A DNA stretch of 64,000 nt, taken from NCBI GenBank assembly GCA_973895155.1, contig OZ316893.1, positions 17,242,770 to 17,306,769 of the forward strand, written 5' to 3'. The stretch comes from Marsupella aquatica. Lineage: Eukaryota; Plantae; Marchantiophyta. Every line of letters begins with the position of its first letter. Position 1 is the first letter of the stretch. The translations under genes were made by a program, and so were the position numbers. Below are positions 1 to 43,173 of the stretch, one piece after another. The notes beneath the pieces are model-generated. The model saw only the letters and a list, made by a program, of their open reading frames with translations, was not told the DNA's origin and searched no databases.

Positions 1-255
1 TGGAATGGTTTTTTTTATAAATTTTAATACCGTGAAAGACCCCACGGATAGGGGGAACAACAGCCCTTAATACAGGGACAGCAACAGCACACTAGCGAGC
101 CACAAAGAGAGCCCAAAAGCACAAAAGAGAGCATCAAAGCCCCAGGGAGAGCCCCCCCTCAAAGAAGGGAAATAACACCGATCAAGAGAGCACCCATGCC
201 CTTCCCACAGCAGCCCCCCAAAAAGCAGACCCCTCAATCAGCAACGCCGCCGCTA
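1..255 (-). mobile_element. 3' end of a short, 5'-truncated L1-type LINE inserted in the copia gag (may extend left of the window)
   Basis: Bases 1-70 (aatggtttttttttataaattttaataccgtgaaagaccccacggataggggg) closely match 27871-27920, the TSD-defined 3' end of the full LINE. Copia gag sequence (EGRTDYLLWEKQ) starts at about 255. Confidence 0.65.
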
Positions 256-272
256 GAGGGCGCACAGATTAT

Positions 273-3200: not shown

Positions 3201-4340
3201 AAGTCCTTGTATGGATTGAAGCAAGCTCCTCGGCAGTGGAACAAGCGGTTTGATGATTTCATGCTTGCACAAGGATTCACTAGGATGGTGTATGACCCTT
3301 GTGTGTATACAAAATCAGTCAAGAATGGTGTGTTTGGTTTGTTCATTCTGGTGCTCTATGTGGATGACATGTTGATTGTGGCTAAGGATCAAACTGAGGT
3401 TGACAAACTCAAAGCAAAATTGAGTTCTGAATTCCGAATGAAAGATCTTGGGAAAGCCAAGAGGATCTTAGGTATGGAGATTACGAGGAACTTTGAAACT
3501 GGACAATTGTGGCTGAATCAAGGCAAGTATGCTAAAAAGGTACTTGCAAGATTCAACATGGAAAATTGTAAGCCAGTAAGTATTCCTTTGGCTCCACATT
3601 TTAAGTTATCATCGGCTTTCTGCCCCACGGATCCAGTGGAGAGAGGCTTGATGACTAAGGTTCCATATGAGAAGGCAGTGGGCAGTCTAATGTATTTGAT
3701 GACATGTACCAGGCCTGATCTAGCCCTAGCAATGGGCAAAGTGAGTAGATTCATGTCAAATCCAGGGAAGGTACATTGGGAGGCTGTGAAATGGATTCTC
3801 AGGTATCTTAAGGGCACAATAGACTATGGTCTGTTGTTTGATAGTAGATCAAACAAAACCAAATCTTTGGTTGGCTATGTAGATTCTGACTACGGAGGCT
3901 GTCTGGAAACAAGGAGGTCAACGACTGGGTATGTGTTTACTCTTGGAAGAGGATGCATAAGTTGGAGATCTACCTTGCAGAAGTGTGTATCTCAGTCTAC
4001 TACAGAAGCAGAATATGTTGCAGCAGCAGAAGCAGCAAAGGAAGCAATTTGGTTGGATAAGTTGGTCACTGAGATGGGATTGGAGCATGGAAAAATGACT
4101 CTTCATTGTGACAGCCAAAGTGCGCTTCACCTAGCTATTAACCAGGTTATGGATAGTAGGGTGAAACACATTGACATCAGGTACCATTTTATTAGGCAAG
4201 CAGTGTCTGATAAAATGTTTGAGCTAGTCAAGATTGATGGAAAGCTCAACCCGGCTGATGCTTTTACCAAAGTGATTCCTTTGGAGAGTTACTCAAGACA
4301 CCGTGCTACTTTGCAAGTTTTGCATTTGCAGCACAAGTAG
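273..4340 (+). pseudogene. gag-pol: Copia gag-pol polyprotein in one frame, with in-frame TGA at 1020, 1110 and 3042
   Basis: UBN2-type gag, CWKCNKPGH zinc knuckle, PR WILDCACTYH, GAG-pre-integrase LWHCRLGH, INT HSDVWGP/LRSDNGGEY/PQQNGVCER, RT YKARLVAKGF/SLYGLKQAPRQW/LYVDDM, RNase H YVDSDY/TEAEY/KHIDIRYHF. ORFs 273, 1200 and 3048 share one frame. Confidence 0.93.
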
Positions 4341-4879: not shown

Positions 4880-5512
4880 ACGTTGATAGTTAACTATAAC
4901 AGCGAGTTATTCCGCATGACATCCCAGTCAGTGATGAAGAACAAATAGAGAAGGCACTATTAATCAACCTTCCACTTGGGCAACATAATACTCTGAGCAC
5001 AGTACAGAAACATGAAGTTCATGAAATACTCTGAACTTATAGCTCACATGTTGCTAGCCGAGAGGCATCAGGAGTTACTCTTGAAGAACTCAAAGATGCA
5101 ACCCTCGGGAACCCTGCCATCACCCCCAACCACCAAGACAAACTTTGGACAGCCTTCCAGCAGCAGAGGAGGCCAACGGGGCGGCTCCAGCCACAACGAT
5201 AGAGGAGGAAGACAATTTGGAGGCGGAAGATCCAACTACCTCAGGGGGAGAGGCAGAGGCCGCGGAGCTGGAGGAGGCCGCGGACGAGGAAGATCAAGCT
5301 TCACCTACACCCGTGGAGGATCGGGAAGACCAGGACGACCAGCCCAACGGGGCAGTTCATCCCAACAATACTCAGGAAGACCCGCCGTGGAGTGCTTTTG
5401 ATGCGGCGCCAAGGGCCACCCACAAAAACTGTGCCGCATACCGGCACACCTAGCAGAATTATACCAACATAGTAGAAATAATAGAACTCATGAGGCACAT
5501 CATGGTACTTTT
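4880..5512 (+). pseudogene. gag: Bianca-like gag, partial; continues at 21371-~21500
   Basis: MKFMKYSELIAHMLLAERHQELLLKN, RGRGRG tract, and CF*CGAKGHPQKLC zinc knuckle with a stop. Confidence 0.75.
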
Positions 5513-8500
5513 TGTGGTGCGTCCCATGGCTCCCTAAACCCAAGAAACCCCCCAGCTCAAGCCGATTCCCGCAGGTTTCGTGCTTGGCGAGGCCGTTTCC
5601 GCGGCTTAGCGGCATGGGACGCTGCTAACCTTCTACTACTACTATTAACATTTTACACACATATACTGGACAGATCCTTCATCGGGTCATGAGATACGTA
5701 GCCGGCCTAATATAGGCCTTCCCCTGTCTTCCCCTGTCTTCCTGTTAGGTATGTTTGGATTCCGCCGCCGGAATGATCCCCAATAGGCTTGGTTAAGCCG
5801 CTAAGACCTCTCTCAGCTCGACACATCCAACTCTCACTCCCCTGCTTACTTTCCTTCCTTCTGTTGATGTGGGCACTCTTCACACAAGTTAATGCGACAC
5901 ACAAATAGCAAAATGACTCATTCTGACTGAGTCATACCATGCACTTGCCATACAAACAGTACATCTCATACACAAGTTCTGCGAACTAAGCCGTGAGGCC
6001 AACTCTATTCAGCTCTTAGGCATGAGGAAACATGAATATACACAAGGGTCACTGTATGACTAACCGAGAGCTTCTCGTACTACTTGATCCCAGCCCGGCT
6101 GGTGCAAACTAAAAACTTGCTAAAGAAGAGGCCCTGAGCTCCCCGCTGCCCAGGTACTTATCCTGGTAGTGGATCCGCCATTCTTTGCATCGTAAGCCTA
6201 ATCTACCTGACAGTAATCTACTTGCCCGAATCTACCTATGTACAGCAAGGCAGGAGCACAAGTGTTGCTCCTACCAGTGGGACCGCAATCCCACTAAGCT
6301 AAGTGTCAGGGCCGCTCTTGGTTCTGATCCTAATCCTAAACGTGGAGATCCGCGCCCGCCCTGCCCACTCACGCCTCCTCCCTCCACGTCCGCCCTCCCT
6401 AAAAGGAACGGCGCCCTTGCACCGTCACGACACCGGTGGTGGATCCTCAATGGACGCCCCCAACACTTCCTCCTCAGCCACTGCCGTTGGCCCGCCTACT
6501 GACAGATTACCTGCCCTTGACCGAGTCAACTCTCCATCGGCCTGACTGGGTCCACCTTCGGCTTCAACCTCGACACCGGCCTCGGCAATACCCACGGCTT
6601 CGGCTTCAGCCACTCCCTCGGCTTCGGCCACTCCCACGGCTTCGGCCTCCCCTTCCCCTAGGGTAGTTGGATCCTTAGCCGTGACCCTGTCTGGGGTCGG
6701 TGCTGGGTCTACCTCCTTGATCACCACGGCCTGTGAAGTCGTATTACTCCTTGACCCTGGAGGTTTCCGCTTCTTCTTCGTTGGTGGCTCGGCAGCTGGT
6801 CCCTTCCCCTTCCCACTTACTTCCGGCACTGGTGCAGTTGACGCGGCTTGTCCTTCGGCAATTACCACCCCTGGTAACTGGTTTGTCCCAACGGGAGATG
6901 GACCTGCTGCAGCTAAGCATTTAAATACTGCGGCTTGTTTCTTCAGCCACTCTGTTTGGTTGTCGGCCCGCCGCTGTAGGTTCTCCATCTTCCTCGTGAT
7001 TTCCTCCAACTCCTCTTGGGTTTCATCCAGGTCCTTACGTGCCCCCTCCAGCTCGTTTTTGGCCTCCTCCTGCTCCCTGTGGGCTTCCTCCAATTCCTTC
7101 TTCAAGGTAGCCCTCTCCTCCTGGGTTGCTCTTAGCTCCTTGTCGAGCTCTGCAATGATGACAGACTCCATCTGGTTCATCTTGGCGTAAGTCTGTTCGA
7201 GCATCTCGTCCTTCTCCCTTAGGTCGGCCTTGAAGCTGGCCGTCAGGGACGCAAGCTCCTGCTGCAGCGCCATAATCCCTTGATAGGATTTCCCTAACTC
7301 GACCTCCTTCTGCTCAAGGGCTCCGCGGATTTTCTCGAGCTCCCCTTTCAACGCCCATTCCTTTCTTTGGGTCTCCGCCATGGCCCGGCTGTTGGCTGTT
7401 ATGTGGGCCTCCTCTGTATTCTTCAGTTCTTGCTTCCACTTCTCCCTCTCTTTGATCGTGTCGGCCAACTCTTCCTGCGTCTGAGTCAGTTTATCCTTGA
7501 TATTCTGATTATCAGCCTGCGCGGTGTCCAACTGCCCCTGCATGATGTTCAGCTCATGTCATTTAATCCGCAGTTCATCTTGGGCTTTCTTGGCCGCCCT
7601 TAGATCTTCAATCTCGGCTCCCATCCTCCTAAGCCGCCGAATGACCTCGTCCTTCTTGCTTCTCTCTAAAGCCACCGCTTCTTCTAATTGGTGCTTCTCC
7701 AACTGCTCCCTATGGAAAAAGGGTCCTATCTCCAACTCCTCTCCAAAGATGCCGAGCGCAAGTTCCCCACACATCTCACCATACTCCATGGCTCTATTCT
7801 TAGCGTAGGTGGAGTAAGTAGAAGTGATCGGCATCGCCCATCGTGGCCTCTGCTCCCAAGCCGTCCTGCGGATCTCTTCAATTGTGGCTAGAGGTTTGCT
7901 TCCTTTTTCGGCTAGCCGCCTGATGTCCTCCGGCCAATCTCCTCCTGGTAAATCCTTTTCCTTAGCCAGGGCGGCCTCTTCCTCCTGCTTGATTCGCTCC
8001 TGAAATTCCTGCACCGTCTGTTTTATGCCGTCGAAGCTCGGGGGAGCAACATCTGGTGGGGGAGACTCAGGGCTACTCTGCTGGTTGGGGTCCCCTCGCA
8101 CTACCCTTGGAAGTGTGGGGACAAACCGGCCACAGGTCCTTACTCCTGGAACGTGATGGTCCGACCCATAGCCGGAATTATCATGGCTGCAGTCCTCCAC
8201 TGCCTCCTCTACCTCTTGGACGTCCGGCTTCTCCCTCTCCTCTTCGTCGGTAGGAGCTTCAGGCAATTCTGCCTCAGATTCGGAGCTTGAGGTTCCCACG
8301 TACATTCGAACACCTGGCTTGGATTCCGGCCTGATTCTCTCCTTGTTTCCAGCAAAGGGGTTTTCTCTTGTGAGCCGGTGTAGGCCTACCTCTGTAGTAG
8401 TGTCCTGCATTGTTGCCGTTGCCGTTGTTGTTGCCGATGCCGATTTCTTTTCTTTCTCCAGTAGTTTCAGCAGACTCTGCATGCCTGGTTGCTGCATCGG

Positions 8501-10157
8501 CAAGTCTTCCTTCCTGGGCCTAAACACCTGCTCGATCGTAGGACTAACAGGTGGTTGAGGCTTCTCAGCCAACGGCCTCGGCGTTGGAGCTTCCTCGGGT
8601 GCCCTTACCTGCAGGGGAAGTACCGGGGCAAAAGTCTGACTTCTGGCATACCGGCACAACAGCGGCATGTGATAGCCAAGCCGCGACACGCTCCCCATGC
8701 CGATTACCTGCTGCTCCTCCTTTAAGATCTTCTTCAATTGGTTGAGGAGGTACCCGTTGTAGTCCCGGCTTGGGTCTGGCCTTTCTGCCAGATAGACCTG
8801 TGCCTTGCCGATCTCTGCCCTTGATAAGTTACAATGCATGGTCACCCGCAAGAAGTCGATCATCTCTCCTATGTGCGGGTTGGTGCAGGTGTTCCGGAAG
8901 AAGCCATTCTTCGTTGATGGCCCGGGGAACGACCGGAACTCCTTGTCAGGCAAGGTCTTCCTGGTATCAACTTTGGTCTTATTGCCTATCGGCAGGCCAA
9001 ACACTTCGGCAATTACCTTGGGAGTAAGATAGAAATCCTTCCCATATATCCTCGTGCAATTGGTCTCGGGTTCCCATGACCCCACGAATTCTAATAGGTC
9101 TGACTCCGGTACCTCCGGCTTCAGCCATGGTAATCTTACAAAGGCCTCCAAGCCGGATCCGGCCATGAAGCCTTGGTACTTCTTGGTCTGCATGGCCGTA
9201 AAGCATGCATCCTCCTCCCGTGCAAAATGTAGTTGCACCTCCACCGGTAGGGTTGCCGCCCAGCCCTTCCAGGTGTCATCCCTGGTTGGAATGGCCTTGA
9301 TGGGATCGACCTCCTCCTCTTCGGCTTCTCCCTGCCTCCTGCTCTGCTGCTCGGCTGGCTTCTTTGGTGCCGCCGACCTCGTTCTTTTTGCCGGGGTGGC
9401 TTCATCGTTGACGGCTCCCTTCCTCTTCATCTCTGCTGCCGTGGAGGTTTCTCCTAGCACCGTTGCCTGGGTCCACCTTTCCGTGCTACCCTTTAATTCC
9501 CAGTGTATGTCGTTGCAGTTCTTGATGGCCTCTCGGATGCCGACGACGCTGTCTTTGCAAAATAGAAGATCGTCGAGTTGATTGGAAGTAGGCGTCCACA
9601 GGAACTCGTCCTTGATGAGTTCGCCTCCTAAGAAAGCCGTCTTCTGCAGCTCCCACAATCGAGCGAGCTCCTGCCGTTCTCGAGCTGCCCTTTCTGACTC
9701 CTTGTCCTTGTAAGTCTTGATGTACTCAGTTGCCCGTTCGAACAGGCATCCCCAGAAATGTGCCGCTTGATTGACGTTGCTCATACCCTCCTTAGGTTGA
9801 TCGTCGGTATCTACTCTCTCCCCGAGTGCTTGCCTAAGCAGCTGACAGTAGTTGGCCTCCCGTAGTCGTCTGCCTAGTTCGTGCTCGCAAATGAGCCACC
9901 ATCTCCTGCAAGCGCTCCTTACCCCTCTCCTCTGCCGGTCCTTCTTCCCGTTGATCCTTCCTAGCCGCCGACGCTTAACGCGCCCTAACCCTAATCGGGT
10001 TTTCACCCTTAGCCTTACCTCCGGCCTCTGCCCGGGTTCCATGGTTGCCCCTAATTGTTTATATTTTCCTTGTTTTGTCACTATACTAAGGTGTTCCTAG
10101 GGTGCCTTCCTGCTTTACCCACTTAACCGGCCGAGTGATTCCTATCTAGGCATCACA
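5513..10157 (-). repeat. 3' LTR of the gypsy (4645 bp)
   Basis: Direct repeat of 16697-21365; tgtggtgc...ggcatcaca on + strand; PPT adjacent. Confidence 0.95.
6425..10081 (-). pseudogene. LTR-encoded accessory protein, ~1218 codons, one TGA at 7559-7561; plant-mobile-domain-like region, acidic/Pro linker and long coiled coil
   Basis: The 840-aa and 372-aa ORFs are in frame. The stop is CGA in the other LTR. E/K/Q heptad-rich C-terminal region. Confidence 0.85.
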
Positions 10158-13100
10158 TAGCTCCCCACTTAATTGTGAAGCGTCCTCGCGAACAACTTCA
10201 TCTTCGTCCATATAGTATTTCTTGAGGCGGTCATAATGGATGCGAACTGGATATACCTCTCCCGTAATGTTGGCCAATTGTACGGAGCCATTGGGGAACA
10301 TCATGGTTACTCTAAAGGGTCCTAACCAGCGAGTGTAAAGCTTTCCTGGAAACCTACTATACCTACTGTCATAAAGTAGCACAAGATCACCGGTATGAAT
10401 ACTAACTACTTTTAACCTTTTATCATACTGCTGCTTCATGATATTCTGTCTATATTCTACTCTCTCGGCTGAAATCATTCTCGCTTCCTCTAAAGCTTCT
10501 AACCTATATTCTCGCTCCTTTAGGCTCTCCTCCGCTGAGGCTCTTTCCTCAATTGTAACTTGAAATGTCGGTATCTCAAGTTGCATGGGTACCAGGGCTT
10601 CTTGTCCAAAGGTTAAGAAGAAGGGTGTATGACCGGTAGTGGATTTATAGGCAAGATTGTAAGCAAAAACAACAGCAAACAATTTATCATCCCAATCGAG
10701 TTTGTTCTGAGCTACTGTCTTGTTCAATATCTTTCCTATGATCCCGTTTGCTCGTTCTGTCAACCCGTTTGCCTTTGGATGGTAGGGAGTAGTAGGCCTA
10801 TGTTTAACTAAATACTGCTCAATTAAATGACTAATTATATCATTCAAAAAATGGGTTCCTCTATCACTAACTAATTCTAGGGGTGCTCCATACCTGGTGA
10901 AGATCTGCTCATACATGAATCTAGCCGTAGTAATTGCATCATCCTTCGTTGTTGGTCTGGCCTCTACCCATTTAGTTGCATAATCCGTAGCCAGGATTAT
11001 GTACTTGTTCCGTCGAGGGTGGGTCAGTGGTTTCAGAGGTCCAATGTAATCAATACCCCACTTCTCGAATGGTGCCAGAGGTAGAATAGGGTGCAGTGGA
11101 TGCCTGGTGGACGCCCTTGGTCCTCCCGCTCGTTGACAAGGATCGCATTGTTTGATAAACTGATAGACATCTTTGTGCAAGGTGGGCCACCAGTAACCGG
11201 CATTTAATATCTTCTTAGACGTGGTTACTGGGGCAAAATGTCCTCCGGCCTCCTCTCCATGCATGGCCCGTAGGACTCGTTTTACCTCTCTCTTTTCCAA
11301 ACACCTTTGAATCGTGCCGTTGATTCCATGCTTGTGCAGTATGCCTTTAATGCACTGATACTGTCTGACCTTCCGCACAAAGACTGCGGCTTGCTCTCGG
11401 CTTAATCCTGGCTGTAATCTGGAAGTGCTGAGAAATTGTAAAATCTCAGGGTACCATGTACCAGCTATTTCCACAACGAATAGCTCCTCGTCGGGGAATC
11501 GATCATCGATGCAATCCGTGGCAGGTTTACCTGTGATCCTTGAAAAGAAGTCGGCATTGGCATGTAACTTTCCCGGCTTGATCCTCAGCTCATAGTCAAA
11601 CTCCTGTAATAGCAAAATCCATCTTGCTACTCTGCCTGTAAGGTCCGGCTTATTGACTAGGTACTTCAAACTTTCATGATCAGTATGAAAGATTACCTTG
11701 TACCCTAGTAAATAATGCCTAAACTTTTTACAAGAATAAATGACTCCTAATGCTTCTCTTTCCGTGGTAGAGTAGTTCCGTTCGGCATCGGCAAGCTGAC
11801 GGCTTGCGAAGTATATGGGATGGTCCCTTCCTTTCTCATCCAACTGACTTAGTACTAAGCCAATACAGAAGCCCGAGACATCTACAAAAACATGAAAATC
11901 TTTGTTCCAGTCCGGTGCTATCATGACTGGGGCCTCTACTAACATCTGCTTCAATTCTACCACCGCTGTGACTCGTTTGGGTGTGGGTTCGAAGTCTGCT
12001 CCTGCCTTGAGCATATTGGTTAATGGTAAAGCCAGCTTGGCAAAATCCTTGATGAACCGGCGATAGTAACCAATGCATCCCAAGAAGGATCTTACATCCT
12101 TTATGTTCTTAGGTTGCATGATATCTAGCCATACTGCTAGCTTACCTTTGTCAATCTCAATGCCCTTCCTTGATACCTTGTGACCTAGTAGCACCCCCTC
12201 GGTTACTGCAAAAAAACATTTATCTGGGTGTAACTTGAGACCCACCTCTCTACATCTCATGAAGGTTTTCCTGAGGTATTTAGCATGTTTCGATGCCTTC
12301 CCGAATACTGCAAAGTCATCAATGAAGATTTCCATGAACTTTCTCAAGTAATCATGAAAAATGTTCACCATTAATCGTTGGAACATAGCTGGTGCGTTGC
12401 AGAGTCCAAACGGCATACGATTGAAGACATAGATCCCCCATTCCGTGATGAAGGTCGTCTTGATTTGGTCTTCCTGCCGAATCCTGATTTGGTTATAACC
12501 AGAGTATCCATCCATGAATGAATATAGTTCATGACTGGCTACCATGTCTAGTACCATATCAGTAAACGGTAAAGGAAAATGGTCTTTTAATGTTGCTTCA
12601 TTCAGCTTCCTGTAATCCTGACAAACCCGGATCTTGGGTTTACCATCGGGTCCAGCTTTCTTGGGAACTATCACAATTGGAGACACCCAGTCTGAATGCA
12701 GGACTGGAGTGATGAATCCAGCTTCCACTAGTTTGTCGATTTCTGTTTTGACCAGCAGGGAATACTTCGGGTTCATCCTTCGAATTGGTTGTCGAAATGA
12801 TTTGGCTCCTAACATGAGATCAATTCGATGTTCCCCTAGTGTTGGATCTACTCCCTTTAGATCTTGGTGACTCCATGCAAACACATCCTGAAATTCAATC
12901 AATAAGTCACTGATCTCTTTCTCGAGCTCAGGTGCTAGGTTTCTCCCTAAGTTCAGTTCTCTTCCCTCTCCTAAGTCGAGCTTCCGATATTGCCGTGCTT
13001 GGATCATATTAATCTGCTTCTTCAAATTCGGGTCCAGTTCGGCTTCCAGTCTCTCTAATCTCATACCTCCATAAACTGGGATCTCGGCTGGACTAGCCGA

Positions 13101-13412
13101 GTCGGTCCCTTCCTTGGTGTCCATAGATTGTCCCCTTACCGGTCTATTCGGTTTTGAATTAGTGGTTGGCTCCCCTTCCTGCCTTGGCTCTAGATCGTGT
13201 CTGTCCATCTCATCCACCTCTTGCTCCTGAGAGTTAGGCCGCTGTGCTCTCTCGGCTTCTAATAGGGCCTCAATTTGTTCTGCCCTCGTAATCGGCTTGT
13301 ATGCCGATCCCTTGGTATTTAATTCCTTGCCGATGATCGATGGCGTTGTGGACCCCGTCGGCTCTGCCACAACGCCTGCAGAAAATCCACTGTCCCTGCT
13401 ACTGCTCCCCAC
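10146..13412 (-). CDS. pol: Gypsy pol: RT, RNase H, integrase
   Basis: RVCQDYRKLN, FMDGYSGYNQI, MPFGLCNAPA, FIDDF, RNYSTTEREALG, HHCC (H..GGH..CDPC), WGIDYIGP, ANGLTER, WLGPF. Open for 1088 aa; ends 12 bp inside the LTR. Confidence 0.95.
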   Translation of the reverse strand: MGSSSRDSGFSAGVVAEPTGSTTPSIIGKELNTKGSAYKPITRAEQIEALLEAERAQRPNSQEQEVDEMDRHDLEPRQEGEPTTNSKPNRPVRGQSMDTKEGTDSASPAEIPVYGGMRLERLEAELDPNLKKQINMIQARQYRKLDLGEGRELNLGRNLAPELEKEISDLLIEFQDVFAWSHQDLKGVDPTLGEHRIDLMLGAKSFRQPIRRMNPKYSLLVKTEIDKLVEAGFITPVLHSDWVSPIVIVPKKAGPDGKPKIRVCQDYRKLNEATLKDHFPLPFTDMVLDMVASHELYSFMDGYSGYNQIRIRQEDQIKTTFITEWGIYVFNRMPFGLCNAPAMFQRLMVNIFHDYLRKFMEIFIDDFAVFGKASKHAKYLRKTFMRCREVGLKLHPDKCFFAVTEGVLLGHKVSRKGIEIDKGKLAVWLDIMQPKNIKDVRSFLGCIGYYRRFIKDFAKLALPLTNMLKAGADFEPTPKRVTAVVELKQMLVEAPVMIAPDWNKDFHVFVDVSGFCIGLVLSQLDEKGRDHPIYFASRQLADAERNYSTTEREALGVIYSCKKFRHYLLGYKVIFHTDHESLKYLVNKPDLTGRVARWILLLQEFDYELRIKPGKLHANADFFSRITGKPATDCIDDRFPDEELFVVEIAGTWYPEILQFLSTSRLQPGLSREQAAVFVRKVRQYQCIKGILHKHGINGTIQRCLEKREVKRVLRAMHGEEAGGHFAPVTTSKKILNAGYWWPTLHKDVYQFIKQCDPCQRAGGPRASTRHPLHPILPLAPFEKWGIDYIGPLKPLTHPRRNKYIILATDYATKWVEARPTTKDDAITTARFMYEQIFTRYGAPLELVSDRGTHFLNDIISHLIEQYLVKHRPTTPYHPKANGLTERANGIIGKILNKTVAQNKLDWDDKLFAVVFAYNLAYKSTTGHTPFFLTFGQEALVPMQLEIPTFQVTIEERASAEESLKEREYRLEALEEARMISAERVEYRQNIMKQQYDKRLKVVSIHTGDLVLLYDSRYSRFPGKLYTRWLGPFRVTMMFPNGSVQLANITGEVYPVRIHYDRLKKYYMDEDEVVREDASQLSGELCDA
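10161..10170 (-). other. Gypsy polypurine tract
   Basis: AAGTGGGGAG on - strand, 3 nt before the 3' LTR TG. Confidence 0.75.
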
Positions 13413-14389
13413 TTAGCCGTTTCATCCAATTGGTCTACATCCTTTACTTCCTCCGGAATTGCAGCTAAAAAGGTGGATTCTATTGTAAAGCAGTCCTCGA
13501 CCTCTTCGTCTTCTTCTTCCAAGTCACCTTCCATTGGTTCTTGCCATAATCCGCTGGGGGGTACCTCTGGTCCAAAGACACCTTCTTCGGTTAGGTTAGT
13601 GAGGCATTCTAACCAACGTACTTCATCGGCTGACTCCAGTCCACTATCGTACCCATCTACTTCCCTTATGCTTTTCCTACGGTCATCCTTAGTGTCCCAG
13701 GATACCGTGATAGAGGGGGTCCCGAAAGTGAACTGCTTTTTACCCCAATCTTCTATTACCTCGGCTAGGTACAGCCATGGCCTACCAATCAATAGCCGGA
13801 ATGACGTAGGATTTACCGGCTTCATTACTACATAGTTAATGCTAAAGAAGATACCTCTTATCTCTGTCTTGATGCCGGTTAACACTCCCGTCGGAATGAC
13901 CTGATATCCATTGGCCATGTTCAACACTCTTCCAGTCATCTCCGGTGTTAGACCCCACCCTTTTGCTGTTGAATCAATCATAATACATACCCCTGATCCT
14001 CCATCGATGGGTACCCGTAGTAATAATTCTCCTTGAATCATTAATGGTAATGCTGGGGCTCCTTGATCTTCTTCTATCATTAGTACGTCGGATCTGGTTG
14101 CTACCTTGGGTAATCTCGGCTTGCCGAGAATAGCCTTCCTTAATTGCTTCCGGAAGTACGGACTATTTTTCAATAGTTGACCTACTGTTGCCGAGACTCT
14201 AGATTCTAGTACATCTTTAGCCAGGTCATAGGGAACAATCGGCTTCTCTTCTGGTGGTGTTTCCGTCTTGGATTCGGCCAGTTTTGCCACGCTAGTCTCC
14301 ACAGCTGTTGGGTCTTCCGAAGCAAACAATGCTTTTGCTCGTTTTACATCCTTGGCAATGGCTTCGGTATTCTCCAGGGCCCGGGGTCC
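13319..14389 (-). CDS. Gypsy aspartic protease region plus acidic linker
   Basis: IDGGSGVCIM catalytic-type motif and LLIGRPWL; different frame from RT, overlapping it by ~90 nt. Confidence 0.85.
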   Translation of the reverse strand, partial: GPRALENTEAIAKDVKRAKALFASEDPTAVETSVAKLAESKTETPPEEKPIVPYDLAKDVLESRVSATVGQLLKNSPYFRKQLRKAILGKPRLPKVATRSDVLMIEEDQGAPALPLMIQGELLLRVPIDGGSGVCIMIDSTAKGWGLTPEMTGRVLNMANGYQVIPTGVLTGIKTEIRGIFFSINYVVMKPVNPTSFRLLIGRPWLYLAEVIEDWGKKQFTFGTPSITVSWDTKDDRRKSIREVDGYDSGLESADEVRWLECLTNLTEEGVFGPEVPPSGLWQEPMEGDLEEEDEEVEDCFTIESTFLAAIPEEVKDVDQLDETAKWGAVAGTVDFLQALWQSRRGPQRHRSSARN

Positions 14390-14412
14390 TCACTTCTTTT
14401 CTTCCTACCCAT

Positions 14413-14653
14413 CACGCGCGAATAAGTATAGGGTTTTTTTATTGGGTTTAGTGAAATACTTTTAAATTTTTGTTGAAGAACATTAGGGTTATTTTAATCC
14501 AATTTTGAGAATTATAATAATCATAGGGTTTTTTAAAATCAAATATGGGAATATTATTGGAATATTCCATTAAGTTAGGGGTAAAAAAATTCCTAAAAAA
14601 AACTTTATTGACTTAACTTTTAGGGTGTTTATTCTCCCAAAACTTCGAGCGTG
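14413..14653. mobile_element. 241-bp AT-rich MITE-like insertion near the end of gag
   Basis: Termini cacgcgcgaa...ttcgagcgtg (inverted, 1 mismatch), AT on both sides, abrupt composition change. Confidence 0.75.
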
Positions 14654-14655
14654 AT

Positions 14656-16627
14656 ATGGGACACCCCTTGGATTGGGGCCCCCGAGCTCCAGGGTTTCTA
14701 ATTCTCTTAGTTGTTCCTTAACACTAGCCGTAACAGAGGGGTAGAACAACTTAGGATGATCTCGATTGAAGTCGCTATCTTGTGAAGGATTGGTTTCACT
14801 GGTGGGCTCATGGCTTACCTGTATTGCCGGAGCCCTCCCTTCTCCTTCTGTTGATGTTGACGAAGAGTCGATCCTTTCCTCCGTAACCTTCCCTTTATTT
14901 TTGGCCAGCCCATCCCACCTTTCCTTCCTTCTGGTAGATCGAGTAGAGACCCGGTAGCAATCATGATCTAAATCCTCCTCTGAGAAGGTTGATAGGCCTT
15001 CGGCCTCATCATCAGATGGTACGAACTCTGCCTCGGCATCCTCTTGCCATCCTAGTTCGATGTGGTTGATTTGAACTCCTCCGGGGGTAGTACCTGGCGG
15101 TAAGATCTTGATCGGCAAAAGCTTATGATTTGCGGCCAGGCCTGCCAACCAAGTAGGACATTGCCCTAGCATATGACCTTCCTGTCGGCATCCCATACAT
15201 AGCTGAGCTGGTTGTCCATCACCCTGTTTGCGTGCATTCGGGCATTCTCTAGCAAAATGGCCAGGTTGACCACAATTATAGCACGCCGCAAATCTTTGCA
15301 CATTCGGCCTAGGAGGTACTGACGGGTTCTGAATAATCCGAGGATACATCTCTCCTGGATTGTTCCTTAACCCTGACCACAGAGATGCAGGTCTGTTGGA
15401 TAGGTCTCGTGCTCCAGTCTCACTGATGCCGAAAACACTATCAGCGGCATCTCCCAAAAAGTACTCTACTTCTCCCTGACATGGTCTGATCTCGGCCACA
15501 TGCCGAACATGATTAGTATTAAGCTTAGGACACGCATCTTTATGGTGTCCGGTTTTATAACATAAGGCACACCATACAGAGCTATCCTCCTGTACTACCT
15601 TCTTCTTTGGTTTTACCTCTGCAATGATAGCCTTAAGTTGCTCGGTAAGGGCTACGATGTTATCTGGTGGCTTAGCCTCCATCTTGACTTTCGTCTTCCC
15701 TCTCCTTCTGCCCTTCCTTTTCCTAGTTTTTTCTTCTTCAGAACTAGAAGATGACTCACTCTTGCTACTCCCACTATCCGAGCTTGACTTATCACTTCTA
15801 GACTTCTTGGAATGTTTCTTCTTCTTATCTTTTTTCTTATGGGGTGATCCCTCCTCTGATGAGGAACTCTCAGACTTAAGCTGTTTCTTCCGGCTTGTGA
15901 TATCTGCATTAATGTATAATTGAATATCCTTAATTGCTTCGGCTAAAGTCTCCGGGTTCTCCTTCCTAATTGCAAAACTCATCTTCTGTGGCAAAGCATT
16001 CACCAACCATTGAAGTTGCATACCTTCAGATGCATTGGTCTTTGTACGTCTTACCAGTTTCTGAAAGCGTTGCAAGAACTTCCTGAAGGATTTGTTCTCC
16101 TTGAACCGAAGTTGTCCCAACTTCAGCACTGCTAGTTCTGAAGTTCCAATGGGTCGAAACTCCTTAACAAAGAGTGTTTTGAAGATATCCCAGATGGCTT
16201 GATCTTCCACATCTAATGCTCTGTACCAAGGCCTAGCCTCACCCTTGAACAGGCCGGGAAGAATCTGCATCTTGATGGCCGATTCTCCATTTGCTGTAGC
16301 GGTTCCCTCGAAATCATCCAACCATTTGTCCGGATCCTCATCTCCTCTCCCATGAAATGCCTTGTAATGTATGCGCGACCGCTGGCTCAATCTGGTCCCT
16401 GGCCTCTCGTCTGGCCGTGCCTCTGGTTCCCCCATGTCGGTTGGAGACTCACTTCTCCTTACCGACTCTTCTTCTGGTATGTCTTCTTCGACGCCACTTC
16501 CAGTTTCGGAGCTACCAGCTCTTTCTGCCCCTCTCAGTCGCTCTGTATCATGCCACCCGGCGAGCTGCTGCAGTCGAGCTCTCTCCCGTTGAATCACTCT
16601 TTCTTCCCTCGGCGTAAGGTCAGTCAT
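14656..16627 (-). CDS. gag: Gypsy gag with three CCHC zinc knuckles, interrupted near its end by the MITE
   Basis: FHGRGDEDPDKWLDDF, FKGEARPWY, CALCYKTGHHKDAC, CYNCGQPGHFAREC, CMGCRQEGHMLGQC. Confidence 0.92.
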
Positions 16628-16674
16628 TACCTACGCTTCCGTTCTAACTTCATATCTCACGGCTTAAGAAATGC

Positions 16675-16692
16675 CCCCTCCATCTAGCGCCA
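16675..16692 (-). other. Primer-binding site
   Basis: TGGCGCTAGATGGAGGGG, 4 nt after the 5' LTR end; starts TGG (complement of tRNA CCA); tRNA not identified. Confidence 0.85.
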
Positions 16693-16696
16693 AAAA

Positions 16697-19600
16697 TGTG
16701 GTGCGTCCCATGGCTCCCTAAACCCAAGAAACCCCCCAGCTCAAGCCGATTCCTGCAGGTTTCGTGCTTGGCGAGGCCGTTTCCGCGGCTTAGCGGCATG
16801 GGACGCTGCTAACCTTCTACTACTACTATTAACATTTTACACACATATACTGGACAGATCCTTCATCGGGTCATGAGATACGTAGCCGGCCTAATATAGG
16901 CCTTCCCTTGTCTTCCCCTGTCTTCCTGTTAGGTATGTTTGGATTCCGCCGTCGGAATGATCCCCAATAGGCTTGGTTAAGCCGCTAAGACCTCTCTCAG
17001 CTCGACACATCCAACTCTCACTCCCCTGCTTACTTTCCTTCCTTCTGTTGATGTGGGCACTCTTCACACAAGTTAATGCGACACACAAATAGCAAAATAA
17101 CTCATTCTGACTGAGTCATACCATGCACTTGCCATACAAACAGTACATCTCATACACAAGTTCTGCGAACTAAGCCGTGAGGCCAACTCTATTCAGCTCT
17201 TAGGCATGAGGAAACATGAATATACACAAGGGTCACTGTATGACTAACCGAGAGCTTCTCGTACTACTTGATCCCAGCCCGGCTGGTGCAAACTAAAAAC
17301 TTGCTAAAGAAGAGGCCCTGAGCTCCCCGCTGCCCAGGTACTTATCCTGGTAATGGATCCGCCATTCTTTGCATCGTAAGCCTAATCTACCTGACAGTAA
17401 TCTACTTGCCCGAATCTACCTATGTACAGCAAGGCAGGAGCACAAGTGTTGCTCCTACCAGTGGGACCGCAATCCCACTAAGCTAAGTGTCAGGGCCGCT
17501 CCTGGTTCTGATCCTAATCCTAAACGTGGAGATCCGCGCCCGCCCTGCCCACTCACGCCTCCTCCCTCCATGTCCGCCCTCCCTAAAAGGAACGGCGCCC
17601 TTGCACCGTCACGACACCGGTGGTGGATCCTCAATGGACGCCCCCAACACTTCCTCCTCAGCCACTGCCGTTGGCCCGCCTACTGACAGATTACCTGCCC
17701 TTGACCGAGTCAACTCTCCATCGGCCTGACTGGGTCCACCTTCGGCTTCAACCTCGACACCGGCCTCGGCAATACCCACGGCTTTGGCCTCAGCCACTCC
17801 CACGGCTTCGGCTTCAGCCACTCCCTCGGCTTCGGCCACTCCCACGGCTTCGGCCTCCCCTTCCCCTAGGGTAGTTGGATCCTTAGCTGTGACCCTGTCT
17901 GGGGTCGGTGCTGGGTCTACCTCCTTGATCACCACGGCCTATGAAGTCGTATTACTCCTTGACCCTGGAGGTTTCCGCTTCTTCTTCGTTGGTGGCTCGG
18001 CAGCTGGTCCCTTCCCCTTCCCACTTACTTCCGGCACTGGTGCAGTTGACGCGGCTTGTCCTTCGGCAATTACCACCCCTGGTAACTGGTTTGTCCCAAC
18101 GGGAGATGGACCTGCTGCAGCTAAGCATTTAAATACTGCGGCTTGTTTCTTCAGCCGCTCTGTTTGGTTGTCGGCCCGCCGCTGTAGGTTCTCCATCTTC
18201 CTCGTGATTTCCTCCAACTCCTCTTGGGTTTCATCCAGGTCCTTACGTGCCCCCTCCAGCTCGTTTTTGGCCTCCTCCTGCTCCCTGTGGGCTTCCTCCA
18301 ATTCCTTCTTCAAGGTAGCCCTCTCCTCCTGGGTTGCTCTTAGCTCCTTGTCGAGCTCTGCAATGATGACAGACTCCATCTGGTTCATCTTGGCGTAAGT
18401 CTGTTCGAGCATCTCGTCCTTCTCCCTTAGGTCGGCCTTGAAGCTGGCCGTCAGGGACGCAAGCTCCTGCTGCAGCGCCATAATCCCTTGATAGGATTTC
18501 CCTAACTCGACCTCCTTCTGCTCAAGGGCTCCGCGGATTTTCTCGAGCTCCCCTTTCAACGCCCATTCCTTTCTTTGGGTCTCCGCCATGGCCCGGCTGT
18601 TGGCTGTTATGTGGGCCTCCTCTATATTCTTCAGTTCTTGCTTCCACTTCTCCCTCTCTTTGATCGTGTCGGCCAACTCTTCCTGCGTCTGAGTCAGTTT
18701 ATCCTTGATATTCTGATTATCAGCCTGCGCGGTGTCCAACTGCCCCTGCATGATGTTCAGCTCATGTCGTTTAATCCGCAGTTCATCTTGGGCTTTCTTG
18801 GCCGCCCTTAGATCTTCAATCTCGGCTCCCATCCTCCTAAGCCGCCGAATGACCTCGTCCTTCTTGCTTCTCTCTAAAGCCACCGCTTCTTCTAATTGGT
18901 GCTTCTCCAACTGCTCCCTATGGAAAAAGGGTCCTATCTCCAACTCCTCTCCAAAGATGCTGAGCGCAAGTTCCCCACACATCTCACCATACTCCATGGC
19001 TCTATTCTTAGCGTAGGTGGAGTAAGTAGAAGTGATCGGCATCGCCCATCGTGGCCTCTGCTCCCAAGCCGTCCTGCGGATCTCTTCAATTGTGGCTAGA
19101 GGTTTGCTTCCTTTTTCGGCTAGCCGCCTGATGTCCTCCGGCCAATCTCCTCCTGGTAAATCCTTTTCCTTAGCCAGGGCGGCCTCTTCCTCCTGCTTGA
19201 TTCGCTCCTGAAATTCCTGCACCGTCTGTTTTATGCCGTCGAAGCTCGGGGGAGCAACATCTGGTGGGGGAGACTCAGGGCTACTCTGCTGGTTGGGGTC
19301 CCCTCGCACTACCCTTGGAAGTGTGGGGACAAACCGGCCACAGGTCCTTACTCCTGGAACGTGATGGTCCGACCCATAGCCGGAATTATCATGGCTGCAG
19401 TCCTCCACTGCCTCCTCTACCTCTTGGACGTCCGGCTTCTCCCTCTCCTCTTCGTCGGTAGGAGCTTCAGGCAATTCTGCCTCAGATTCGGAGCTTGAGG
19501 TTCCCACGTACATTCGAACACCTGGCTTGGATTCCGGCCTGATTCTCTCCTTGTTTCCAGCAAAGGGGTTTTCTCTTGTGAGCCGGTGTAGGCCTACCTC

Positions 19601-21365
19601 TGTAGTAGTGTCCTGCATTGTTGCCGTTGCCGTTGTTGTTGCCGATGCCGATTTCTTTTCTTTCTCCAGTAGTTTCAGCAGACTCTGCATGCCTGGTTGC
19701 TGCATCGGCAAGTCTTCCTTCCTGGGCCTAAACACCTGCTCGATCGTAGGACTAACAGGTGGTTGAGGCTTCTCAGCCAACGGCCTCGGCGTTGGAGCTT
19801 CCTCGGGTGCCCTTACCTGCAGGGGAAGTACCGGGGCAAAAGTCTGACTTCTGGCATACCGGCACAACAGCGGCATGTGATAGCCAAGCCGCGACACGCT
19901 CCCCATGCCGATTACCTGCTGCTCCTCCTTTAAGATCTTCTTCAATTGGTTGAGGAGGTACCCGTTGTAGTCCCGGCTTGGGTCTGGCCTTTCTGCCAGA
20001 TAGACCTGTGCCTTGCCGATCTCTGCCCTTGATAAGTTACAATGCATGGTCACCCGCAAGAAGTCGATCATCTCTCCTATGTGCGGGTTGGTGCAGGTGT
20101 TCCGGAAGAAGCCATTCTTCGTTGATGGCCCGGGGAACGACCGGAACTCCTTGTCAGGCAAGGTCTTCCTGGTATCAACTTTGGTCTTATTGCCTATCGG
20201 CAGGCCAAACACTTCGGCAATTACCTTGGGAGTAAGATAGAAATCCTTCCCATATATCCTCGTGCAATTGGTCTCGGGTTCCCATGACCCCACGAATTCT
20301 AATAGGTCTGACTCCGGTACCTCCGGCTTCAGCCATGGTAATCTTACAAAGGCCTCCAAGCCGGATCCGGCCATGAAGCCTTGGTACTTCTTGGTCTGCA
20401 TGGCCGTAAAGCATGCATCCTCCTCCCGTGCAAAATGTAGTTGCACCTCCACCGGTAGGGTTGCCGCCCAGCCCTTCCAGGTGTCATCCCTGGTTGGAAT
20501 GGCCTTGATGGGATCGACCTCCTCCTCTTTGGCTTCTCCCTGCCTCCTGCTCTGCTGCTCGGCTGGCTTCTTTGGTGCCGCCGACCTCGTTCTTTTTGCC
20601 AGGGTGGCTTCATCGTTGACGGCTCCCTTCCTCTTCATCTCTGCTGCCGTGGAGGTTTCTCCTAGCACCGTTGCCTGGGTCCACCTTTCCGTGCTACCCT
20701 TTAATTCCCAGTGTATGTCGTTGCAGTTCTTGATGGCCTCTCGGATGCCGACGACGCTGTCTTTGCAAAACAGAAGATCGTCGAGTTGATTGGAAGTAGG
20801 CGTCCACAGGAACTCGTCCTTGATGAGTTCGCCTCCTAAGAAAGCCATCTTCTGCAGCTCCCACAATCGAGCGAGCTCCTGCCGTTCTTGAGCTGCCCTT
20901 TCTGACTCCTCGTCCTCGTAAGTCTTGATGTACTCAGTTGCCCATTCGAACAGGCATCCCCAGAAATGTGCCGCTTGATTGACGTTGCTCATACCCTCCT
21001 TAGGTTGATCGTCGGTATCTACTCTCTCCCCGAGTGCTTGCCTAAGCAGCTGACAGTAGTTGGCCTCCCGTAGTCGTCTGCCTAGTTCGTGCTCGCAAAT
21101 GAGCCACCATCTCCTGCAAGCGCTCCTTACCCCTCTCCTCTGCCGGTCCTTCTTCCCGTTGATCCTTCCTAGCCGCCGACGCTTAACGCGCCCTAACCCT
21201 AATCGGGTTTTCACCCTTAGCCTTACCTCCGGCCTCTGCCCGGGTTCCATGGTTGCCCCTAATTGTTTATATTTTCCTTGTTTTGTCACTATACTAAGGT
21301 GTTCCTAGGGTGCCTTCCTGCTTTACCCACTTAACCGGCCGAGTGATTCCTATCTAGGCATCACA
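16697..21365 (-). repeat. 5' LTR of the gypsy (4669 bp)
   Basis: Matches the 3' LTR apart from about 20 transitions seen by eye and one 24-bp repeat-unit indel near 17785. Confidence 0.95.
17609..21289 (-). pseudogene. LTR-encoded accessory protein, second copy, ~1226 codons, one TAG at 17939-17941
   Basis: 1116-aa ORF plus in-frame 108-aa tail; the stop is CAG in the other LTR. Confidence 0.85.
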
Positions 21366-21849
21366 CTTTTCTAGAGCAGGACGAACACCTAGAAAACTAC
21401 ACCCATGAGGACACCACCCTTGAGACACATATGATTACACATCAGCAGGATTCCTTACCTTTAGACAACACTAGCCCTGACTACCCGTTCTTTGAACATA
21501 AATAGGAGAGAGGACAATAAAAGAATTATCAAAATATATTCTCTATTCATATTCTTTGAAGGTTAATGAAATGATAAAAAAAATTATCATTTTAATAGTC
21601 ATATATAATATACCATTCTCTTTTATGTGTACATGAGTCCTTTTTGTATGCATATCTATCTTCTATACACATATGTTGTGGTGGGGCCATAGTGCCTATA
21701 GAAATTATCACCAAAAACTGACATGTACATACATCTTAGTCATGTTATGAGTTTCTCCCATGCACATGATGAGTTACGGTCTAGAGTCTTCACTCTAGAC
21801 CTAGGTTCTTAAAAGTAGACTTGAGTTGGCGCTTTTATAGTAAGATTAG

Positions 21850-23912
21850 AACCTGCATTGTAGAGAGCGGCACGCCCCACACTATATTAAAGTGCAGGGA
21901 CTATTTCACTCACATTACTCCCTCCCACAGAAACATGACTACTATCATGGGGAGAAACCAGATAGAAGAAGGTACGGACCCGCCACAATCACGTTACCTC
22001 AGGGCACTACTATCTATATTAAATCCGATATATACGCACCTAATGCCATGAGAAACTTGATTAGTTTCAAGGACATTAGAGATAACGGATTCCATATCCA
22101 CACTAGCACAAATAAAAACCAGGAAATAATTCATATTTTAAAGAATACTTCCAATGGAATGCAAATAAAAGAAACACTTTTCGCGTATCCGTTGGGTTTC
22201 TATGTCACACAGCTGAATGCTTTTCATTCCACTACGCATGAGATGTCACTATATAACCTATGGCATACTAGGCTTGGACACCCTGGCATGACCATGTTTC
22301 AAAAGATGAAAAGAGTAACCCACAGAATACCACAAAACACACGTCGAACAAACCATAATCAGTCTTGCATGGCATGTTCTCAAGGAAAGTTAATCCTTAG
22401 ACCTTCTATCTCCAAGACAATCCATGAAATGCCCAGATTCTTGGAACAAGTGCATGCAGACGTATGTGGCCCCATAGAACCACCAAGCGGACCATTTTGA
22501 TTTTTCCTAGTCATTATTGACGCATCCTTGAAATGGTCGCAAGTTTCGTTGCTTTCCACACGAAACATGGTTTTTCCATGACATTTAGCACACATCCTCA
22601 AGCTAAAATCCCAATTCCCCCAAAACCCTATCAAGACAATTAGGGTTGACAATGTAGGCAAATTTACTTCAAAAACATTCAAAGATTTTTGCATGGCTAC
22701 AGGGATAGACACTCAATACCATGTACCCCACGTACGTTTCTAAAATGACATTGTTGAATCTGTCATTAAGAGAATACAGATGACAGCAAGACCCATGCTT
22801 ATGCAGACGCAGTTACCCACAACTGCCTGGGGTCAGGCTGTACTACATGCAACAACTTTACTTAAATGTCGCCCATCAGCATACAACGACCAAACTCCAC
22901 ACCACCTAGCTTTTGGAGTAGACCCTGACTTATCACATGTCAGAACCTTTGGTTGCCAAGTACTAGTCCCCATAATGGGACCCAAATATACTAAGATGGG
23001 ACCTCAAAGACAAAAAGGCATATATGTTGGTCTTGAGTCACCATCCATAATCAGGTACTTAGAACCATCAAGTGCCGATGTCTTTCAAGCGAGGTTACCT
23101 AACTACCATTTTTACGAGAATGTTTTCCCCAAACTATTTGAAGGGAAACCGCAGTTTGAATGACCTCATAACCTAGAATTACGATGGCCGACTCAGTCCA
23201 CTATTTGGAAAGATCCACGGACATGACAATGCAAAGAAGTTTGTAGGATATTACAACTAACAAAGACTATGGAGCAAATGCCAAACGCATTTACAGACAT
23301 TGCGCAGGTGACAAGATCACATATCCCTATCACAAATACTCCCGCACGTCTACAAGAATCCACACAACTGGCAACGGACCAACCACCAAGAGCAAAATGT
23401 GGACGTCCTTTGGGATCTAAAGATACCCAACCAAGGCAAAGAAAAACAACAACAACAATATCACCTACAATACCAGAAGTCATACCCACACCAAATCCTG
23501 TGGAAATCCCAGAAAATGAAGAAATCTCAATTCACTACATGAACATTGGGACCATCTGGAATAGAAATAATATTCCCATGGACGACAACTTTGCCTACCA
23601 CATTTCCCAAAATATCATGGATACACAACTTGACCCTAAAACAATCAATGACACAGAAAAGCCCAGATTGGTCAGAATGGGAAAAGACAATTACTTCAGA
23701 ATTGGATTCACTGATTAAATGCCAAGTGTTTGGACCTATTGTCCCAACACCACAAGATACCCACTTAACGGATTATAAGTGGACATTTGTGAAAAAGAGA
23801 AACACACAATGCCAAGTTGCAAGATATAAAGCACACCTCGTCGCGAAAGGATACACACAAATACCTGGGCACCAGTGATAAATGAAATAACCTATCGATA
23901 CCTAGTTGGATG
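21850..23912 (+). pseudogene. pol: Bianca-like pol, part 1 (PR, INT, start of RT), with many stops and frameshifts
   Basis: CIVESGTPHTIL, LWHTRLGHPG, VHADVCGPI, TKMGPQRQKGIYVG, KWTFVKKRN, RYKAHLVAKGY. Confidence 0.88.
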
Positions 23913-24303
23913 TGTAAGTAGTGAGTAAATTACAAAAGTCAAAATAAGTGAAAAATTTGAAAAAATTTCAAAGTGTTAATAGTATACTAGTTTACTAGTT
24001 ACTAGTTAGGAGTATCCAAGAGTTAATAGCATTACAGGTTACAACTTTACCAGTTTACGAGTATACGACTACGAGTTTACGACTTCAACACTTGAACGAT
24101 AACATGCGAACGGACAATGCGATAGCGATGGGTTGCGGAGCTTCTAACGATTAACTCCCAATGGAGTGATGCATCCTGGAGTAAAGGATGAGGCGCAAGT
24201 GAACCCTGACCTCTACACGCATTTCCTCTACAATTTATCTTACACTTACAATTGAGCATAATTTCAACACTGAATCCCTAGGCGCAGACTACAAACTGAA
24301 GCT

Positions 24304-29712: not shown

Positions 29713-29835
29713 CAATCAGTGAAAACACAAACAGAAACCCTACCAAAAGGGAAACAACAACAAAGAACATAACACAGACCCTAGCCGAGCCGGGGCCCAG
29801 CACCAATCCCCCCACAGCAAAGGCCAACAGGGGCC

Positions 29836-42501: not shown

Positions 42502-43173
42502 CCTACTGGCTCCTGAAAGTCTGGTTCGTAACCTTTCACGCTGCCAAGCTTATTATCATGGCGTGATATCCTTGTGGGATGATGCAAAGGCAGTGCCTAT
42601 GCCCTGGGCTGGGTTTGGGGAGGGTGGTGACTAGGGTGCATTGTAACAGGCTGGAAGCTCTGCAGTCATGGACAGCAGTGAACAGGGATGCCTAATGGTG
42701 GTATTTGTGTTCCATATATCCCTGACTGTATGTGCCAAAAGAGTTAACATAACGTGTAATAAATTCTCACAAACCCTAAACCACCCCAAAAGAAAAAAAC
42801 AGGTTTGCGAGTAGTGTACCTATTGTCAAGTGAATGACACAAAATTCCTCAATGTTTGAGGGTGTCACCACCTCCACAGCTATCCTCAAATGTACCGCCT
42901 CTGCATGTACACCCATGACCATATCAGAGTCCAATCATGTATAGTCATAGGCACAGGTGTGAGAGCGGTATCAGATATCTCACCGCCAAGATTTGAGCCC
43001 ACCCAGTACATTTACAGTGACACCCCCAGGCAGCAGGAAACAACAATCCGCCAACAGCAGAATAAGCCCAACTGCCACCAACCATAACAAGGTACATTAG
43101 TTCAAAGATCACATTTATTTCAATGATCTGATTTATACAAAAAAACTTGTGTCCAAACTGATGCTACTACTCC

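Follow-up and report, generated by a model that had tools for sequence, protein, structure and literature searches.

A 1,200-codon reading frame inside both long terminal repeats of a Ty3/gypsy element from the liverwort Marsupella aquatica

The window analysed here, 64,000 nucleotides of the liverwort Marsupella aquatica (contig OZ316893.1, positions 17,242,770 to 17,306,769), contains a Ty3/gypsy retrotransposon of 15.85 kb at 5513–21365 on the minus strand, the strand of all oriented features below unless another is given. A reading frame of about 1,200 codons lies wholly inside both of its long terminal repeats (LTRs), and this is a real feature of the element, which is a recently inserted non-chromovirus gypsy. 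Our reading, to which we give a probability of about 0.68, is that the LTR frame of this young element is under purifying selection, likely sits in U3 and likely codes for a nuclear accessory protein of the Transposase_32/Athila ORF1/PMD type.

The element and the frame in its LTRs

Self-BLAST of the window finds one long direct repeat, 5513–10157 against 16697–21365, at 99.0% identity. The two copies are the 3′ LTR (5513–10157, 4,645 bp) and the 5′ LTR (16697–21365, 4,669 bp), each beginning with TG and ending with CA. The same 5-bp target site duplication (TSD) stands on either side of the element (5508–5512 and 21366–21370), a motif resembling a primer binding site (PBS) follows the 5′ LTR after four T (16679–16692), and a polypurine tract (PPT) with an adjacent conserved motif (10158–10194) abuts the 3′ LTR and overlaps the last integrase codons. 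The PBS is putatively of the tRNA-Arg type. Between the LTRs there are 21 substitutions, all of them transitions and 19 in a CG or CHG context, and a single indel, one in-frame unit of 24 bp. Divergence is K ∼0.0045, so the insertion is young. When the flanks are translated separately they look like the two sides of a Copia gag-pol region, which fits one clean gypsy insertion; the gypsy element lies within the gag region of this decayed Copia element (∼4900–5512 and 21366–24000), with a zinc knuckle on the left and gag_pre-integrase on the right.

A single sense frame takes up 78% of each LTR. It opens at LTR nt 62, has its first ATG at nt 116 and ends with the stop at nt 3755–3757, giving 1,213 codons in the 5′ LTR (17609–21250) and 1,205 in the 3′ LTR (6425–10042); the longest open reading frame (ORF) in 200 shuffled LTRs had 318 codons (mean 178). 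Each copy is broken by one premature stop, at 17941–17939 in the 5′ LTR and at 7561–7559 in the 3′ LTR, and at each of these sites the opposite LTR has a sense codon. Because the LTRs were identical at insertion and the stops sit at different codons, the frame was open at that time. Most of the original prediction thus stands: LTRs of ∼4.65 kb with TG..CA, TSD, PBS and PPT and a single in-frame 24-bp indel, about 80% of each LTR taken up by one sense ORF near its 5′ end, and a distinct nonsense change in each copy of a frame intact at insertion. The start needs revision: the first ATG is where it had been placed, but the real start is probably Met125 (LTR nt 374; 20992 in the 5′ LTR and 9784 in the 3′ LTR), which leaves 1,127 and 1,119 codons respectively.

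Comparison between divergent copies indicates that the frame is under purifying selection. Divergent contigs over 8700–10500 (depth ∼4–25) gave 77 differences, each scored alone, of which 40 are listed, all 40 within the ORF. Among these 40, 23 are silent against an expected 22–30% (p 1e-6 to 3e-4), and 24 fall at third codon positions. The dN/dS ratio that had been proposed as a check on the frame is accordingly not near 1, with omega at ∼0.2–0.3 from these contig variants. Silent changes make up 21 of the 30 listed differences after codon 125 and two of the 10 before it (Fisher p 0.009), and the N-terminal Met of homologue P0127 is in register with Met125. Since constraint begins near codon 125 and this Met is in register, the protein likely starts at Met125 and would be ∼1,120–1,130 aa long.

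The long-LTR layout is very probably real and family-wide. Part of the LTR was found in 14 of the 16 runs listed (10 studies), none of them an RNA run, and six runs contain at least half of the LTR words; the run richest in these words may stem from the same source as the window. Eight of the 16 had their contigs aligned. Contigs of X1, X2, X3 and X6 were aligned to 10158–21420 (n=22,207, 38,393, 1,182 and 326); X6, in which other elements dominate the reverse transcriptase (RT) bins, was excluded from the depth ratios. In X1, X2 and X3 the median summed contig depth of the ORF relative to the internal region is 3.67, 3.12 and 1.86, and relative to the LTR tail 1.0, 0.77 and 0.78. The step in depth falls in the bin holding 16697, the LTR edge, and depth remains high across the ORF. 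A single-copy internal ORF would predict an ORF-to-internal ratio of ∼1, so an ORF within the LTR is favoured; ratios above 2 would fit solo LTRs. Three contig joints in X2 lie exactly at 16697, and the match of one contig in X6 ends exactly at 21365. The stop at 17941 is missing from >99% of summed depth in X1, X2, X3 and X6. A block of ∼42 nt next to the PPT (10153–10194) is common to other families in X7, X12 and X14 at depths of 5,000–48,000; their matches end 3–8 nt inside the LTR start, and therefore mark the same LTR boundary independently. In those families the block has AT-rich DNA on both sides, whereas here it doubles as integrase coding sequence.

The encoded protein and the lineage of the element

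The protein consists, in order, of a helical N-terminal part, basic motifs, a folded domain, an acidic and proline-rich linker, a coiled coil and a low-complexity tail. The basic motifs (aa 243–260 and 1127–1131) resemble nuclear localisation signals. The conserved globular domain (∼aa 290–490; 19895–20497, 3′ copy 8687–9289) has a predicted helix-hairpin-helix core resembling Transposase_32, ATHILA ORF1 and PMD, and the predicted coiled coil (∼aa 820–1080; 18125–18907, 3′ copy 6917–7699) is poor in proline and glycine, charged and heptad-like. The globular region, basic motifs and long coiled coil expected from the original prediction are thus all predicted by sequence analysis. There is no transmembrane segment (top 19-residue hydropathy 1.09, nothing above 1.6), so the protein does not qualify as env-like.

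A phmmer search of 1.84 billion representatives returned 20 matches at E≤0.001, the best at 2e-49 and 41% identity; 19 are plausible, and two of the 20 are named, both from Calypogeia fissa (CAM6090539.1, CAM6122807.1). P0132, a repeat artefact, was excluded from the homologue alignment A2, and P0125, P0127 and P0130 match the N-terminal part and lie outside A2. Other searches with the LTR protein or its domain were negative within their scope. PDB sequence searches found nothing; word-based protein searches with the domain found nothing at 616–1,962 aa or at 30–615 aa, longer proteins not being covered; a metagenome pattern scan gave 101 pattern matches, of which none was confirmed; viral contigs with RT gave 0 of 1. 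A scan with the pol alignment found 79 mostly distant loci (33–52% identity), none with a BLAST match to the LTR ORF.

Judging from profile comparison, homology of the domain to the Transposase_32/PMD type is probable. The domain core was compared by hhalign with 10 downstream ORFs of Athila-type loci or proteins, seven labelled Transposase_32 or ATHILA by Pfam and three added by BLAST likeness to locus L029. The match reached 90.4% (E 1.4e-6, score 46). Control scores stayed lower, with maxima of 27 over 100 block shuffles, 13 on reversal and 16 among 14 pol windows; alignment A2 against the whole of P0080 gave 0.3%. Pfam itself returned for the LTR ORF only sub-threshold matches to coiled-coil families: the gathering score of Transposase_32 or ATHILA ORF-1 was not reached, and PMD (PF10536) had no match to the ORF at E up to 10, nor in 26 proteins scanned. 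In the Atlas, the named clusters closest to homologue P0138 are PMD (0.86) and DUF1985 (0.85), and the ORF presumably also has a motif likeness to the Arabidopsis PMD proteins MAIN and MAIL1. A single-sequence fold had a pLDDT of 36; in a 17-row model the helix-hairpin-helix core was best, at 68–75, and Foldseek with that model found no match in the PDB or BFVD, only helical-hairpin rows at Z≤5.6. The profile check suggested at the outset, against Transposase_32, Athila and PMD, therefore came out divided, with hhalign likeness above all controls but no match from Pfam or Foldseek. Two decayed ORFs elsewhere in the window, 24446–25021 (+) and 52857–53348 (−), are 42% identical to each other. 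The former has no Pfam match, but hhalign aligns it with the profile of the LTR-ORF domain (68.6%, E 4.6e-5); distant relatives of this domain are thus carried by other elements of the window.

The interior of 6.5 kb reads gag, protease, RT, RNase H and integrase by Pfam and tblastn, and this order, together with the TG..CA LTRs, TSD, PBS and PPT, is that of Ty3/gypsy. Gag (14570–16627; Retrotrans_gag and zf-CCHC by Pfam) has its ATG 70 nt into the internal region. The protease region (13319–14389) was placed by tblastn with P0008, P0014 and P0049 and has no Pfam match. The RT-RNase H-integrase frame (10146–13412) crosses the PPT and stops at nt 10–12 of the 3′ LTR, so there is no 3′ internal region. 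Gag-pol is broken twice in this copy: an AT-rich insertion of 315 bp, accompanied by an 8-bp duplication, splits it at one place, and the frame switches near 13400; in relative P0008, gag through RNase H lies in a single frame. The insertion, MITE-like and presumably hAT-MITE-like (miniature inverted-repeat transposable element), interrupts gag-protease at 14372–14694 between 8-bp direct repeats; its ends are imperfectly inverted, and one X1 contig joins across it. An integrase ending on the PPT-adjacent motif occurs in several relatives as well, in 4 of 41 by a strict pattern. Locus L022 (2–7375) encodes a related gypsy polyprotein, 2,458 aa in length, which continues beyond integrase into a segment resembling, by eye, a second protease.

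Several named lineages were considered and set aside. Pol ends shortly after the integrase C-terminus and Pfam finds no chromodomain there, so the element is no chromovirus. The additional archaeal-type RNase H (aRH) of Ogre, Retand and TatI–III was not found: Pfam gave no RVT_3 match, and the aRH of L076 finds four loci and nothing in the window below E 1.4. Phygy and Selgy are short elements with a 4-bp TSD (PMC6317226), unlike this element of 15.85 kb with 5 bp. Membership of Athila was rejected on a FastTree tree of RT-RNase H (98 sequences, midpoint root, no curated reference or outgroup), which groups the element with P0008 and Calypogeia (support 1.0) and keeps it separate from the clade of L029, L003 and the angiosperm matches (1.0). 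The PBS also differs from that of the Athila-type locus L029, and the dominant PBS of Athila, tRNA-Asp/Asn (PMC6317226), is, on labels that we assume, not the type found here.

The best named RT-RNase H matches are Calypogeia fissa at 69% and Riccia at 54–60%, with seed plants at ∼37–51% (among the 120 of 5,719 matches listed). The acidic residues of the native RNase H are intact as judged by eye. Tat Z1/Z2 are defined by lack of aRH with an undegraded native RNase H (PMC10508981), the state found here, and such aRH-less lineages are reported from Marchantia (PMC10508981, PMC13468544). In these features, in its liverwort neighbours and in its place outside Athila the element is Tat-Z-like, a match by description only and not proven; it differs in its LTR-borne gene, of which the available text of those two papers makes no mention.

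Probable position in U3 and proposed expression

Reverse transcription treats whatever lies between the PPT and R as U3 and places a copy at each end of the new DNA. Plus-strand synthesis would here begin at the PPT, which is joined to the integrase end, and because it starts there everything downstream of the PPT, the gene included, would become U3 at both ends. The gene probably does lie in U3, with the borders of U3, R and U5 tentatively placed by the following features. The non-coding LTR tail of 912 bp (16697–17608) is the candidate promoter/R/U5 and holds a GC-rich block, a TGTA-rich zone (LTR nt 4140–4230) and a late TATA-like motif at 16898. Were the RNA to start at the 5′ edge of the LTR, gag would be preceded by 4,614 nt and 67 ATGs; with a start behind the late TATA-like motif, the distance falls to 244 nt. 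Genomic gag-pol RNA would therefore begin in the late part of the tail, with a single copy of the gene at its 3′ end.

The gene itself may be read from its own promoter. The only canonical TATAAA of the LTR, a candidate promoter element at LTR nt 95 (21266–21271), is followed by a repeat at nt 164 and by a leader that precedes Met125; the names TATA-like box and telo-box-like repeat for these motifs are our assumption. The TGTA-rich tail could then form the 3′ end of the gene message. With its own promoter inside the LTR, the gene could be expressed from 5′ LTRs and from solo LTRs; alternatively, a spliced message from the 3′ LTR might serve. As to origin, an Athila-like 3′ ORF may have been captured into U3 by template switching, or the PPT may have shifted upstream. 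A vestigial second PPT or LTR start was sought after the ORF and not found, and this, with the several relatives whose integrase ends on the PPT motif, mildly favours capture.

Alternatives, function and meaning

Three other accounts of the LTR frame have to be weighed against this reading. That it is at present without a role, a passenger in the form of either a captured gene or a GC-rich open frame, is very improbable: both copies here are broken, and the 14 LTR-to-LTR changes within it are a neutral-looking set of 2 silent, 10 missense and 2 stop changes, but such decay is expected after insertion, whereas silent changes dominate between divergent copies, the domain is kept in homologues at 22–48% identity and no shuffled LTR yields a comparable frame (at most 318 codons, n=200). 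There is an equally slight chance that the element is a one-off recombinant, two copies of an internal ORF with its short LTR joined around one gag-pol, so that the long LTR would be no family trait. No second full-length copy was seen, and X1 and X2 contain many low-depth joints within the LTR; against this, PBS and PPT sit at the edges of the long repeat, the TSD is undamaged, neither LTR end recurs further inside and the repeats differ only by methylation-type transitions. The original prediction had set this same short-LTR recombinant against a family trait, and depth that is level over ORF and tail and above the internal region favours the latter. The third account keeps the layout and has the gene within an R/U5 of great length: transcription of the LTR would be driven by the TATA at nt 95, a 5′ extra ORF like Ogre ORF1 would have been absorbed, and gag would be reached by splicing or internal entry. 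The sole canonical TATAAA with the telo-box-like repeat and leader behind it would suit this, as would the 5′ forward extra ORFs that Ogre (21% of elements) and TatII (23%) contain (PMC6317226). It is nonetheless improbable, since 4,614 nt and 67 ATGs would precede gag, minus-strand strong-stop DNA of ∼4.5 kb would be needed and transcription would have to pass the poly(A)-like zone of the 5′ LTR itself.

Placement in U3 with a Transposase_32/Athila-ORF1/PMD-type product remains our reading, and several points weigh against it. The selection test rests on 40 of 77 differences from shallow contigs, each scored alone, and closer variants are silent in only 7 of 14 cases (p 0.04–0.10, among 40 of 1,049 variants listed). 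Contig depth is not copy number, and the depth ratios are supportive only; no contig of X1, X2, X3 or X6 spans a whole second element. Direct Pfam scans of the ORF and its homologues gave no PMD or Transposase_32 match. The hhalign match spans only ∼65 columns and falls to 40–52% (E 1.5–2.9e-4, 8 ORFs) when L029 and L040, which were first noticed via our own profile, are left out. The Atlas PMD match (20% of cluster members) concerns homologue P0138 and is a lead only, the 17-row model is weak overall (pLDDT 51), and even the late candidate RNA start leaves seven ATGs upstream of gag.

By analogy, the likeliest role for the LTR protein, still somewhat short of an even chance, is that of a nuclear factor that would act on chromatin at its own family's LTRs and keep them transcribed. 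A structural or targeting role is possible but unlikely: the protein might join the particle or pre-integration complex via its coiled coil and steer nuclear import or insertion into heterochromatin. The long coiled coil and basic motifs, the integrase without chromodomain and the location of this copy inside another retroelement in a transposon-dense window would suit such a role, and import or regulatory roles have been proposed for such ORFs (PMC7264820). On the other side, the PMD proteins whose role is known, MAIN and MAIL1, take part in silencing and in the condensation of chromatin (PMC5418596), and copying into every LTR and solo LTR would better fit a trans-acting regulator.

Set against known systems, the best reading is a known accessory-gene type, that of Athila and Ogre, relocated to U3, in a position for which we found no description in plants and at a size far larger than the retroviral cases. 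Extra ORFs are common in non-chromovirus elements: 57% of Ogre elements carry PMD and 16% of Athila elements carry ATHILA ORF-1 (PMC6317226). According to a review they belong to the internal region (PMC7264820; also PMC6431247, PMC11728184), one copy per element, and the original prediction likewise had them normally between the LTRs. The extra ORFs of Athila, Ogre and Retand (Transposase_32 PF20167, ATHILA ORF-1 PF03078, PMD PF10536, Transposase_28) share with the LTR gene a sense orientation 3′ of pol, a probably related core domain and basic motifs; the LTR gene differs in lying inside the LTR past the PPT, twice per element, and in falling under every Pfam cut-off. Locus L029 (4948–19658) makes the contrast concrete: this complete Athila-type element with 1.6-kb LTRs (99.4%) has a sense ORF of 925 aa and similar build (Transposase_32 at E 3e-7, below the curated cut-off), but there it is internal, before the PPT. 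MAIN and MAIL1 are Arabidopsis PMD host silencing factors, and PMD-A clades are Gypsy-encoded (PMC5418596); the LTR ORF possibly belongs to the same domain superfamily, a link that is indirect, via the Atlas lead on P0138.

Genes in U3 are familiar from retroviruses, as had been pointed out for sag of mouse mammary tumour virus (MMTV) and as holds also for nef of primate lentiviruses (PMC2664473). Both have the coding frame in the 5′ part of the LTR, doubled per insertion, and the same layout, an ORF wholly inside both LTRs, is found here; these are, however, vertebrate retroviruses, the whole MMTV LTR measures ∼1,300 nt against an ORF of 3.6 kb here (PMC2664473), and no sequence relation to the LTR ORF was found or is implied. 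For plant retrotransposons, our literature searches yielded no description of an LTR-borne ORF, though a precedent may be buried in the per-element table of PMC6317226 or in Steinbauerova 2011; the sole phrase match concerned a host gene inside an element. The REXdb survey has just two classes of extra ORF, those upstream and those downstream of pol, and no liverwort is named in its available text (PMC6317226). Since plant LTRs count as non-coding, and annotation tools either mask them or sort extra ORFs solely by position relative to pol (PMC6317226), LTR-borne genes are easily missed.

Elsewhere in the window, two inverted repeat copies, 78% identical (∼24400–29714 and 31289–34100), begin with TG at 29714 (−) and 31289 (+) and hold ORFs antisense to the TG end, at 32763–34088 (441 codons), 26018–26530 and 28062–28235. 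A convincing TSD was not found for them; they may represent another family whose ORFs lie within or close to an LTR. The window also contains a further Copia element, in which gag, protease, integrase and RT are present along with a few stops (96–4340, +), pieces of a CACTA transposase (Transposase_21, DUF4218, DUF4216; 38929–42549 and 44639–45346, both −) adjoining a PHD-finger-like ORF, and a decayed long interspersed nuclear element (LINE) with a DUF4283 and zinc-knuckle ORF1 and RT (53992–58663, −).

A gene of 3.6 kb that resides in the LTR arrives in two copies with every insertion. The gene would also survive solo-LTR formation, the main host deletion route, so that deletion would leave the accessory gene behind. 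It is conceivable, though doubtful, that a liverwort Tat-like lineage has made its LTR a self-contained cassette for a PMD-type chromatin regulator of ∼1,130 aa; each insertion and solo LTR would then seed a trans-acting counter-silencing gene and drive a very high-copy burst, and the state may mirror a transposon-borne ancestor of the angiosperm silencing PMD proteins. What the extra ORFs of the Athila/Ogre/PMD type do is a question still to be answered (PMC7264820). An abundant liverwort family of young age would make that role testable, and it would extend this type of domain to an LTR-borne form in non-seed plants.

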